Assembly (NCBI GenBank): GCA_964016885.1
Contig: CAXHJY010001005.1
Coordinates: forward strand, 1 to 35,899
Length of the DNA stretch: 35,899 bases
Reading direction: 5' to 3'
Source of the DNA: Eledone cirrhosa
Taxonomy: Eukaryota
This document shows positions 408 to 35,899 of this stretch, piece by piece. A program made the position numbers and the translations under genes. Every line of letters begins with the position of its first letter. Positions within the stretch are counted from its first letter, which is position 1. The notes under the pieces were generated by a model. It was given only the letters and a program-made list of their open reading frames with translations. It had not been told where the DNA came from and ran no database searches.

Positions 408-595
408 GTAGATAAATCTACCAAGAGTTTACGGTAGTGTCCAATCCGTATGAAGAACTCAATGTATTCCGGATATCATGGAAAGAAGAGATGTAATGAA
501 AATCCACTTTCGGTGAAAGATAAACGGTATACAGAGTCAAGATAAAATATTAAACAAATAATGAACAAACAATTCCTTATATTAAACAAAAAAAG

Positions 596-750
596 TTCAC
601 TATTTAACGATCGTTTCTAGGGTATATATGTGTTATAATTGGTATGCATATTTAACAGATCTATGTACAAAATTATACAAAATTATACAAATTATCAAGA
701 TTAAATATACATACCTAACTCATATATACGCCGTCTTCAGAAATAATGAA
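596..750 (-). ncRNA. Type I hammerhead ribozyme with long stem II (mirror of 11108..11262)
   Basis: Reverse complement of the 11108..11262 motif. Confidence 0.78.
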
Positions 751-1334
751 GTATATTTATTGATAATAACAACAATTCAAAATATCAGTTCAAAATTGAC
801 CAATGAAAACACAAAGGGTTAAAAGCAGTTTGGTGTGTGTATATACATGTAAAAACCTTACACATATTTTACAATAATGTGTGTATAATTTGTATGTGCA
901 TACTAAAAAGATGGATGCAAACACAAAATTTCAAGGTTAATATCTCTGTAAGCTTAATGCGCTGATAAGATACGCAATGATACTTATGGAGTCAAGCATA
1001 TAAATATATTTTTTTCATACTCACACATATCAGTATAATCACACATACATGTGCGTATATGCATAAATATACACATAACCACGAACATACAAACACACAC
1101 ACTCCCCCACTCACATTTATATATGTGGATATAAAAACATAAGCAAATAGAAATTAAGTCACTCACATAAAACACTAGCACACACATTTCAAGATCAAGA
1201 TACAGAAATTAGGTGGGAGGGGGGGGGAGGGGTCAGTATTAGATTGTCAGACCAGACTGCCTAATATAAATGTATCTATAAATTAAGAAAAATAAAAAAA
1301 TAAAAACAATAAAATATAATAAATATAATATAAT

Positions 1335-3300
1335 GTACATACACATACAGATATACATACACATACATACATGTACGCGCACATAGAGATATTTACACAT
1401 ACATACATACACACATACCTATACAGTCATACACACACATACATTTACACGAACATACACATACACATATAAAAAGATATAAATACACACACACACACGC
1501 GCAACACATACACACATACACATATATATAAAAAATAGATAATAAAGATATATATCCATATATATATATATACACACACACACATATATATATATATATA
1601 TATATATATATATATATATATATATATACATATACATACACATACATACTCATACATCTAAATATACATACACATACATACACACACACATGTATATACA
1701 TGTACATACATATACGCACATCGATATACATATATATATATATATATATATATATATATACATATATATATATATATATACACTCACATAGACATAAAGA
1801 TACATACACACACAACTTACATACACACGCATATACATATATATATATATATATATAGATGTACCCTCATACATAGAATTAGATATATAATCATACATAC
1901 ATATGTACCTACTTATACTCATATAAATAAATACATACGCTTCCATCTAAGTGTATACACATAAAAAACAATACCACCTCACCAAACCCAGACATACAAA
2001 TGAAAATAATAATAAAAAAACGCATATGTATATACATACACACACGCATTAATAGATATATATATATATACACACATACATACACACGCATATATATACA
2101 TACACACACACATACATACACATACATATACATATATATATATATATATATATATATATATATATATATATATACACACACACATAGACTCATATATATA
2201 TATATATACATATACATATATATATATATAAACATATATATCCACACACTTATACCACCATAAATACACATACAAACACCCACATGTATATACATATATA
2301 TATACATATATCCACATACACACACGTACACATATATATATATATATATATATATATATACACATACATATATATACATATACACACACATAAAAAACAG
2401 ACATGCACATACATATATATATATATATATTTCATTACTCTTATATATACACATAGTATATATACATACACAACCTCACTTATACACATATACACATAAG
2501 TTATATTACAATAATAATAAAGAATAATATATATATATATATATATATACATATACATATATACATATATATATATACATATACACACATACATACACAT
2601 ACATACATACACATAAATATATACATACATAAATACACACATACGAATAAAGACATATATTCACACATAGACACCTATATACATATATATATATATATAT
2701 ATATATATCTATATATATATATATACATATATATATATATATATATATATACACATACACACACACACACACACACAGACACACATACACACTCACATAT
2801 ATATATATATATATATGTGTATGTGAGTGTGCGCAAATACACATATATATACACACACACATACAAACACACACAAACACATACATATGCATACGTGCAC
2901 ACACACACACATATATCACATAGATACGAAGATAAACATATAAATAGAGAGACATACAAATATATACAGAATCCATATACACATACATACAAAGACGCAT
3001 ATACATATACATACATATATACACATATATATATTCCTATATACAAGCATACACATACATACACATATATACATATACATACACATATACATACCACACA
3101 TTCACATACACATACATATATAATACATATATATACATATATATACACACATATGTATGTACAATCATATATACACACTCAATCTTACATTCATATTTAC
3201 ATGCTCATATATGTATTTTTATATTTAGAAATAAATACCAAAACCTATATAGACACCCACCTACACATATATTCATACATATACGCTTACAAAAACAGAT
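1335..3300. repeat. Degenerate (CA)/(TA)/(TACA) microsatellite block within the PLE 3' region (left arm)
   Basis: Low-complexity sequence mirrored at ~8550..10525; boundaries approximate. Confidence 0.85.
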
Positions 3301-4495
3301 GATAATAGTATGGGGGAAAGGGGGGGTTTGGAGAAGGGGATCAAAGTAAATATATGTTTCAAGAAACATATAATATTTTCCGTATCTTAATTCAATGTAT
3401 GTTCTTACATATTTTCAGTGCTAGGAAATACGAAATCTATGCATCTCAAAACAAAAAAGTATACCATTAATCATATGTTAACTAAACCAAAGATAGTCAA
3501 CATATTGATTTCCAAGGTGTAAATTAGTTAGGTTTATAATATTTGAAGCAGAATTATGAAGTCAAACAGTAGTAGATTATTAATTACATTATAACTAAAT
3601 TAAAGTTAATAACGTTATGGTATCAATATTAGGAGATGAATTTAGTAATAGGGAAAAGAAACCCAAATAAAAATAAAATAAAGTATTACATCGGTAGTAG
3701 CATATAAATTATATGTTAACTAAATTAAAAATTATATATTTATTTCAATAGTATACGTTAATTAGTATATGTTAATTAGGTATACAATACATAAAGCAGA
3801 TATTGTATTTCATCAATAGCATAATATAATTATATGCAAATAAAAATCAAAATTAATACGCATACATATACATATACATACACATACACATATATATACA
3901 TATACACACATATATATATATATATACATATATATACACATATATACATATATACTCACATAAACATACATACAGATACACATACACAACACACACATAT
4001 ACATATACATATAGATATACATATCTTTTTCAAAAAATTGCACAGAATATATTAACTAGGTATATATCCAAAACACATCCCATTCTATGATTACATGACA
4101 TTCTGCAATTCGTCTGTACAAGGATACTAATCTTAAGCAAATTAAAATTAAAGTTTTAGGTTGATTAAAACTAAAACCAAATAATAAATATATTTCCAAA
4201 ATGTATATTAATTAGGTCTATAATACTAAAAATTCTTTCTCCGTCATTGGATACATGATATTATTTTGTTATATTTTATCTGTAAAAGAATTATAATAAA
4301 AAAAATTATAATAAAAGGTTAAAATAAATTAAAATTAATCTATAAATTAAATTACTGAGTATATATTAGTAATATTTAAAGGTTTTTCAAAATTTATGAT
4401 TACATAATATTTTCTCATCTGTAATAAAATATTAATTAAATTAAATTTATAGGTTAACTAACATTTAAATTAAATTAAATTCTAGAATAATGTTA

Positions 4496-34251: not shown

Positions 34252-34626
34252 TGATATGTGGTGACAGTCGAGTTTGCAATTTTCAACTGTAATGAGATGG
34301 GTAAATTTCCTACCTTTTATACATTTTATACAGAGAAAAGTGGCTCCAGAATGCAAAGCCCTGTAAACTGTATTTCGACCAATCAGTGTGTAGTTTCACT
34401 GAATTACTACAGCTGATTGGTTTAAGCGTCACGGCTGGTTGAGCATGCTAACGACCAATAGTCATATCCAACGTATCAATTGTTTTGCTTTTTTGAAATG
34501 ATGAAAATAGCATTTTCTATTAATCATCACCATCAACATCACTTTTATTATTATTATTATTGTTGTTGTTGTTGTTGTTAGTGGTCGTGGTCATAGTGGT
34601 AGTAGAAGTAATACCCCTAGGCGTTA

Positions 34627-35529
34627 TTATTGTTCATTTAGCTTGGGTTTGAATTTATCAATAAAATTCTTTTCCTTGATTTTTCTCTTGATTTCATTTG
34701 GGCTGTGTAATTTGTAGAATGGGAATATTATAAATATTCCCTGACCACATGTTGCCAGGTGGCCGCTTAGGGGTATCTGACGGACATTTGGGTCTCTGAT
34801 TTGTTGACGGTGTACCCGTGCACGTTCCGATAGTGCATTTCCAGTTTGACCGACATATAGTTCTTCACAATTCGGGCATTTAATGCAGTAAATTAGATTT
34901 CTGCTTTTGCAGTTCATATTTGCATTTGTGAATATTTTTCCAGTTTTTGTTTTCATATATTGACCGGCGTGTATGGATTGACATGTGCCGCATCGATTAT
35001 CATTGCATTTAGATACAGTGAATGATTGGTCTTTGTTGTTAAGGTCAAACGTTGCTTTTGTTAGCAATTGCTTCAAATTTTTTGGCTGTCTTTTACTAAG
35101 AGTCAAAGATCGATCTGTGATTAAGCCTTTTAATTCATTACTTTGAGCAATGATCGGTAGGTTTGCTTTGGCAGTGTTGAAGATATTCTGGTGACATGGG
35201 TTGTGTGTCATTATAAATGGTATGACCAGTTCTTGGTTTCTTCTTCTTTGGGTTGTTCTAAGTTGTTGTATAGGTATTTTTATAGCCCGCTGTATGCCAT
35301 TTTCTATAAGTAGAGATGGGTATTTTTGTTTGAGCAAAAATTCTCTTAGTTCTGTTAGGCGTTTGTACCTGGTATTTGTATCTTCTACAATGGTACAAAT
35401 TCTTCTGGCTAGGCAGTATGGGATGTTGCGTTTTGTATGAGGTGGATGGCATGACTTAAAATTCAGATATTGATGGGTGTCTGTGTGTTTATAATATATA
35501 TCCGTGGTAATGGTGGTGTCGTTTTTGAT
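34627..35529 (-). CDS. 5'-truncated PLE ORF (RT thumb + GIY-YIG)
   Basis: The frame is open upstream of the listed ORF: TDIYYKHTDTHQYLNFKSCHPPHTKRNIPYCLARRI…CNDNRCGTC…NLIYCIKCPNC…YVGQT…R…H. Confidence 0.88.
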   Translation of the reverse strand: MKNDTTITTDIYYKHTDTHQYLNFKSCHPPHTKRNIPYCLARRICTIVEDTNTRYKRLTELREFLLKQKYPSLLIENGIQRAIKIPIQQLRTTQRRRNQELVIPFIMTHNPCHQNIFNTAKANLPIIAQSNELKGLITDRSLTLSKRQPKNLKQLLTKATFDLNNKDQSFTVSKCNDNRCGTCQSIHAGQYMKTKTGKIFTNANMNCKSRNLIYCIKCPNCEELYVGQTGNALSERARVHRQQIRDPNVRQIPLSGHLATCGQGIFIIFPFYKLHSPNEIKRKIKEKNFIDKFKPKLNEQ

Positions 35530-35540
35530 TCACAATTTGA

Positions 35541-35846
35541 TTCACAAATGCAAATATGAACTGCAAAAGCAGAAATCTAATTTACTGCATTAAATGCCCG
35601 AATTGTGAAGAACTATATGTCGGTCAAACTGGAAATGCACTATCGGAACGTGCACGGGTACACCGTCAACAAATCAGAGACCCAAATGTCCGTCAGATAC
35701 CCCTAAGCGGCCACCTGGCAACATGTGGTCAGGGAATATTTATAATATTCCCATTCTACAAATTACACAGCCCAAATGAAATCAAGAGAAAAATCAAGGA
35801 AAAGAATGTTATTGATAAATTCAAACCCAAGCTAAATGAACAATAA
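35541..35846 (+). CDS. Inverted duplicate of the GIY-YIG domain
   Basis: Matches the C-terminus of the minus-strand ORF except for one F>V change. Confidence 0.85.
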   Translation, partial: FTNANMNCKSRNLIYCIKCPNCEELYVGQTGNALSERARVHRQQIRDPNVRQIPLSGHLATCGQGIFIIFPFYKLHSPNEIKRKIKEKNVIDKFKPKLNEQ

Positions 35847-35899
35847 TAACGCCTAGGGGTATTACTTCTACTACCACTATGACCACGACCACTAACAAC

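Follow-up and report, generated by a model that had tools for sequence, protein, structure and literature searches.

Four inverted insertions between TA tracts

We examined a 35,899-nt stretch of the Eledone cirrhosa assembly GCA_964016885.1 (contig CAXHJY010001005.1, positions 1 to 35,899; hereafter the window), which is 23% GC and carries nested insertions set apart by eight long TA tracts that occupy 35% of its length (Table 1). Four inverted pairs were recovered by self-BLAST of the window, two of them formed by Penelope-like elements (PLEs; inversions 1 and 4) and two by tandem repeats with predicted hammerhead motifs (inversions 2 and 3). Exact alignment of the arms places the four centres where a preliminary description of this DNA had located them, with the refinement that the centre of inversion 1 (5857-5993) is really 136 nt of reverse transcriptase (RT) coding sequence belonging to the longer left arm, which aligns with the RT of a relative, plus base 5993.

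Table 1. Features of the window, in order of position (PLE stands for Penelope-like element, RT for reverse transcriptase, ORF for open reading frame and LINE for long interspersed nuclear element).
Feature	Positions	Strand	Description
Eight long (TA)n tracts	1-407, 11317-13295, 14729-15264, 17269-18255, 20582-20906, 21698-24529, 28484-28736, 28841-34040	none	Within 1-34040, between inserts; 12,519 nt in total; irregular GC interruptions
Inversion 1, left arm	408-5992	-	5'-truncated PLE, assigned to the Hydra clade from its linker and EN motifs
Inversion 1, junction	5993	none	Single extra base
Inversion 1, right arm	5994-11316	+	Subset of left arm; 3-nt TAT match at entry to TA tract
Type I hammerhead motif of inversion 1	11108-11262	+	Core 11118 in this copy; mirror-copy core at 740, minus strand
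310-nt repeat array	13296-14728	-	Non-inverted; 4.6 units of second subfamily
LINE-type RT fragment	15265-17268	-	5'-truncated, not inverted, flanked by TA tracts; RVT_1 match
Inversion 2, left arm	18256-19853	-	5.2 units of 310-nt hammerhead repeat; 3' end at unit phase 65
Inversion 2, junction	19854-19855	none	CC, two extra bases
Inversion 2, right arm	19856-20581	+	2.3 units; 3' end at phase 105
Inversion 3, left arm	20907-21355	-	Phases 0-448 of 591-nt hammerhead tandem unit (U3-A8 core)
Inversion 3, junction insert	21356-21365	none	9 of 10 bases copied from 21372-21380
Inversion 3, right arm	21366-21703	+	Phases 276-613; last 23 nt return to the left arm's opening sequence
Decayed PLE	24530-27800	+	Non-inverted; CX4CxxC linker, GIY-YIG with CCHH; 5' end on TA tract
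310-nt repeat fragment	28737-28840	-	Non-inverted, 5'-truncated; 3' end at phase 65
Inversion 4, left arm	34051-35529	-	5'-truncated PLE: RT thumb, CX5CxxC linker, GIY-YIG; hammerhead core 34246
Inversion 4, junction	35530-35539	none	Straddled by 12-nt tandem duplication (35524-35535/35536-35547)
Inversion 4, right arm	35540-35899	+	Continues past window end

All four inversions are head-to-head, i.e., both arms are 5'-truncated at the centre and their sense 3' ends point outward, and the polarity claimed for them earlier is upheld by open reading frames (ORFs) in inversions 1 and 4 and by type I hammerhead motifs in all four families. The motif scan, whose rules were set after the motifs had been inspected, called for the core, stem II, GAAA, a palindromic helix III and a stem I of at least 5 pairs; it returned 16 hits, all inside these families and on the outward strand in every inversion, against 1 hit in total when the 22,537 non-TA bases were shuffled 100 times with dinucleotides preserved. 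An earlier and stricter version, in which the first base of stem II had to be paired, found nothing in the window. Four of four is by itself weak (1/16 for the stated polarity), and adding four joints from outside the window (see below) brings the count to 8/8 head-to-head (1/256, p ~0.004 for the stated polarity).

Within each inversion the arms differ by no more than one substitution outside microsatellites: one, with two TA-length indels, between 542-5856 and 5994-11316 in inversion 1; one, in a single left unit, in inversion 2; one in 173 nt in inversion 3; and one in 360 nt in inversion 4. The junctions bear scars of 1, 2 and 10 extra bases in inversions 1 to 3 and the 12-nt tandem duplication in inversion 4. 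As described before, sense 3' ends run into TA wherever they are visible (7/7), two of them only through an extension absent from the other arm, which measures 134 nt in inversion 1 (408-541, on the left arm only) and ~160 nt in inversion 3 (21539-21703). An apparent BLAST extension of inversion 1 to position 1 was rejected as an artefact of the TA tract, the shared arms really stopping at 542 and 11316.

Penelope-like elements and hammerhead repeats

Judged from its sequence, the element of inversion 1 (PLE1) is an endonuclease-positive (EN+) PLE of the Hydra clade. Its left arm contains the C-terminal half of the RT, an N-rich insert, a CxCx5C linker, a GIY-YIG endonuclease (EN), a 3.8 kb 3' spacer and a hammerhead motif. 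PLE1 matches a 937-aa RT-EN relative at 31% identity over 498 aa, with YRDD and YIG motifs present; its ORF had no Pfam match, and a longer-protein search gave three relatives, none annotated as a PLE. With Hydra-clade PLEs (PMC8557442) it shares the CxCx5C linker, the absence of CCHH, CxxC and CxH around E and N, the hammerhead and insertion in (TA)n, but it is far longer than their usual <3 kb, the truncated arm alone reaching 5.6 kb, and differs in its N/K/T-rich ORF insert. The N-terminal part of the RT, where the clade's RWK and DKT motifs would lie, was lost with the truncation. This in-frame stretch (6450-6800 and its mirror copy, ~100-150 aa) is lacking in the relative and resembles the N-rich inserts of Adineta Penelope. 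The spacer (7357-11118, plus mirror) extends from the stop codon to the hammerhead, is rich in microsatellites and is possibly captured host DNA, by analogy with rotifer Pen1 spacers, and the hammerhead itself includes a 116-nt stem II hairpin (11125-11240; z -5.65).

The element of inversion 4 appears, from a CX2-5CxxC linker and a CCHH in the EN, to be a PLE of the Neptune/Nematis type, of either clade; Pfam identifies its GIY-YIG domain (E 1.1e-6), and by eye its ORF starts in the RT thumb region. The decayed PLE at 24530-27800 likewise has a linker of Neptune/Nematis type together with CCHH. Both coding elements encode the RT followed by a C-terminal GIY-YIG EN in one ORF and carry the hammerhead motif in their 3' repeat region (cores 740/11118 and 34246).

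By contrast with these ORF-bearing elements, inversions 2 and 3 are built of what look like non-coding, retrozyme-like hammerhead tandem repeats, with one predicted type I hammerhead motif per 310- or 591-nt unit. The 310-nt unit lies within the published retrozyme range of 170-400 nt and fits non-LTR (non-long terminal repeat) retrozymes; a pattern scan of metagenome contigs gave 0 matches to this family. One left-arm unit of inversion 2 fails the hammerhead scan through a change in stem II. Three of the four 3' ends in the family fall at phase 65, and the right arm of inversion 2 ends 40 nt further on, i.e., with a 40-nt one-sided tail that equals the 30-40 nt one-sided tail of PLEs (PMC8557442), a feature explained in vitro by two RT start sites (PMC11167929). 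Both arms of inversion 2 belong to one subfamily and the neighbouring array (13296-14728) to the other; 5 of the 6 fixed differences between the two lie inside the hammerhead motif and none breaks it. The subfamilies sit 3.5 kb apart, and the near-identity of units within each array suggests that both arrays are recent.

The 591-nt unit is likewise tandem, has no ORF in its sense frames and exceeds the published size range. We compared 21080-21697 (likeness set at 88) with 4 of 10 listed public runs, which had been chosen for containing 5857-7780; none of the ten is an RNA run. The family is high-copy, being abundant in runs X3 and X8; a 577-nt contig of X2 spans nearly the whole unit, the joint at which the unit wraps (21338/21697) is present in X1 and X8, and depth is even through 21539-21697. 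This depth and these joints led us to reject the reading of 21539-21697 as unique flank with a 23-nt templated insert. A common 3' end at 21537-21538, followed by TA, is seen in X3 (8 contigs) and X8 (207 reads), and a pattern scan of viral contigs gave 0 matches to the family.

Six joints were listed for the family in these runs, two native and four non-native. Three of the latter (21232>21391 and 21242>21392 in X3, 21106>21552 in X8) pass from antisense into sense and are hence head-to-head, and the fourth (21384/21600; 83 reads, one start) is probably so, given its 65-nt side and a depth step at 21600. Thus, 4/4 non-native joints among those listed are head-to-head and none tail-to-tail; at 4-8 of 27 identity they are not mis-laid native sequence. 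Another joint (21176/21656, 22 reads), the strand of which is unstated, was excluded from the count. In 4 of 5 head-to-head events of the family one arm starts within 21366-21392, a 27-nt segment at the hammerhead's 5' edge that is possibly an RT stop site.

Published non-LTR retrozymes (PMC7229834; 10.64898/2026.07.22.740005) are similarly low-GC, tandem and non-coding, with one type I hammerhead motif and a palindromic helix III per unit; the 591-nt repeat departs from them in unit size and in its U3-A8 core. Such a core and a small palindromic helix III have been described for PLE hammerheads (PMC4209133). In the same source, opposite-strand hammerhead pairs of Schistosoma resemble ours in having two hammerheads 100-700 bp apart and the U3-A8 variant, but are ascribed to truncated PLEs, whereas here the units are ORF-less and tandem.

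Origin of the inversions

PLEs as a rule have a 5'-truncated copy in inverted orientation at their 5' end, the origin of which is called unresolved (PMC8557442), and head-to-head is "the most frequently observed" PLE arrangement (PMC3846280). Inverted partial copies had been noted earlier as known for PLEs, and the polarity of inversions 1 and 4 is not new. Published EN+ PLE head-to-heads share with ours an inverted copy, 5'-truncated and attached at the 5' end, the one-sided tail, TA targeting and a hammerhead near the 3' end; ours differ in the 5.3-5.6 kb arms and 3.8 kb spacer of inversion 1, in 3' extensions (134 and ~160 nt) longer than a 30-40 nt tail, and in that two ORF-less tandem repeats have the same geometry. 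What is new is this extension to two retrozyme-like families, together with one event that excludes fold-back. The preliminary description had reported the geometry for the non-coding repeats, rightly for both inversions 2 and 3, but had not recognised them as retrozyme-like and had missed the tiling of inversion 3 described below. For retrozymes, the accessible text of PMC7229834 and 10.64898/2026.07.22.740005 makes no mention of inverted insertions, a tail or fixed 3' ends, the word "inverted" being absent from the first and confined to a reference title in the second; literature searches that covered few subscription papers and no supplements turned up neither inverted retrozyme insertions nor PLE twin priming.

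The explanation we favour, and hold to be moderately probable, is that in all four inversions a Penelope RT was primed from the two ends of a single break and the resulting pair of unfinished cDNAs was end-joined at the 5'-truncation points. The PLE GIY-YIG nuclease would nick both strands of a TA tract, and each 3'-OH would begin cDNA synthesis from within the RNA, aided by a 2-8 nt TA match. For the repeats the template would be a single multimeric (or circular) transcript, i.e., twin priming, and for the coding elements either two RNAs or one tandem RNA; the cDNA ends would then be joined through microhomology or templated-insertion repair. In vitro, a Penelope protein nicks and extends both strands, with no need for homology (PMC11167929). 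Having no ORF, the repeats would need a PLE protein in trans; it is likely that they borrow a Penelope enzyme, and likely too that their copying began at the two ends of a single DNA break. At the five 3' ends with known continuation the TA match is 8 (with an adjacent mismatch), 6, 3, 3 and 2 nt, the first two ranking in the top 1% for their units and the other three being ordinary. TA annealing likely helps priming, but the idea that self-complementary (TA)n is needed for it was not borne out, as strong matches occur at 2 of 5 ends and only 2-3 nt at the rest.

Polarity does not decide the mechanism, because the same head-to-head arrangement results if a single cDNA (or antisense RNA) loops back, copies itself and joins the other end of the break. 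Such self-priming has been put forward for rotifer Penelope (PMC3846280), and inversion 1 fits it at least as well as two-ended priming, the right arm lying wholly inside a near-identical left arm with a 137-nt loop; the left arm of inversion 2, moreover, terminates inside an imperfect palindrome present in the unit. A fold-back arm must nest, however, and in inversion 3 each arm holds 140-250 nt of the unit that the other lacks, which excludes fold-back there unless the cDNA returned to the RNA. Neither inversion 1 nor inversions 3 and 4 have a palindrome at the junction, and overall we regard fold-back as an unlikely source of the four inversions.

The arms of inversion 3 together tile a single uninterrupted multimeric RNA, ~765 nt long, and overlap by 17-23 nt: the final 23 nt of the right arm are the initial 23 nt of the left, and the left arm ends 17-23 nt past the start site of the right arm (chance ~8%), a tight fit seen in one event. 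The arms also have two minority alleles of the family in common (21390, 21404), which, like the single subfamily in both arms of inversion 2, points to one source RNA or locus. A twin-priming model for L1 was reportedly first proposed in 2001. In the L1 case, inversion-point duplications have a median of 22 bp (10.1101/2024.08.27.596794), and inversion 3, from its tight tiling, appears to match that signature, with two primers on one RNA, a head-to-head product and a short duplication at the inversion point. It differs from L1 in its multimeric repeat template, owing to which the arms overlap in sequence, in having no poly(A), and in the GIY-YIG nuclease and TA target.

Several observations weigh against two-ended priming or leave it without help. 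In inversion 1 no more than 137 nt separates the two 5' ends in arms of 5.3-5.6 kb, and the right arm is nested in the left; such proximity would arise by chance in ~4-5% of cases if the arms were independent, and fold-back predicts it. Inversions 2 and 4 do not discriminate: rather than abutting, the arms of the former overlap by 65-87 nt or are separated by a gap of >200 nt, and the right arm of the latter ends at the window edge. A target-site duplication is unreadable, both flanks being TA, and self-BLAST of the window tied neither repeat family to a particular PLE by sequence. As to the hammerheads, Rfam returned no ribozyme at gathering score, with only TA-driven miRNA noise at E<=1 and nothing relevant on 19860-20570, and 4 of 5 folds are no more stable than shuffles. 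Finally, among the four outside joints three include a side of 27 nt, the letters between being unknown, and the remaining one comes from a single read start. Broadly speaking, two-ended priming with cDNA joining, which the preliminary description had proposed, gains from the exclusion of fold-back in inversion 3, the 1-12 nt scars and the in vitro activities of PLEs, and loses from inversion 1.

Long TA tracts are prone to breakage, and existing copies could have been inverted after insertion, through break-induced fold-back or template switching during repair. Templated junction inserts are typical of end-joining, and L1 fold-backs after retrotransposition have been described (10.1101/2024.12.14.628481). 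Such rearrangement does not explain why polarity should be constant with respect to the RNA strand (8/8) and would usually duplicate the flank, yet the flanking TA tracts are not mirror images, and arm ends sit at family-wide 3' sites; we consider it improbable. Slightly less probable still is an artefact of sequencing or assembly (fold-back reads, amplification chimeras or mis-joins across TA tracts). The near-identical arms, the large share of TA tract with its odd GC pattern, and the lack of a bridge in other data (for inversion 3, the junction compared, none among 21 listed of 1,432 public-run pieces) speak for it, but the arms end at different sites between unmirrored flanks, one polarity holds across four families with scarred junctions, and the same geometry recurs in contigs and reads of other samples.

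The enzyme that moves non-LTR retrozymes has so far been argued only from co-occurrence and hammerhead similarity in the accessible literature, and retrozyme insertions with a PLE footprint (inversion, one-sided tail, fixed internal 3' ends and TA targets) provide structural evidence for a retrozyme-PLE partnership. Cases like inversion 3 allow two-ended priming to be told from fold-back, a distinction not easily drawn from coding PLE copies, and the high-copy 591-nt family makes inversion geometry countable within one genome. It is tempting to generalize, as a plausible but tentative proposal, that animal retrozymes are inserted by Penelope RT-endonucleases via twin priming on multimeric or circular RNA, that two-ended priming rather than self-priming is the general origin of Penelope head-to-heads, and that unit phase is a genome-wide record of where cDNAs start and stop.

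Other inserts and the composition of the TA tracts

Three inserts of related families in the window are not inverted (13296-14728, 24530-27800 and 28737-28840). Two sets of convergent neighbours across a TA tract (11316/13296 and 20581/20907) were rejected as inversions and left uncounted; in each set, elements from different families inserted separately. The decayed PLE is interrupted by a ~170-nt insert at 25030-25200, which, together with the LINE 3' end at 15265-15340, we take to resemble cephalopod repeats. It is followed at 27114-27800 by two copies of a 316-nt AC-rich unit, in which the hammerhead scan found no match, with a 69-nt duplicate of the ORF's end in front of them. Every long TA tract is broken by GC at irregular spacings of ~10-60 nt; there are 395 such GC, 392 of them within ATGCAT, and no CG, a pattern that could reflect reiterative synthesis or a base-calling effect.

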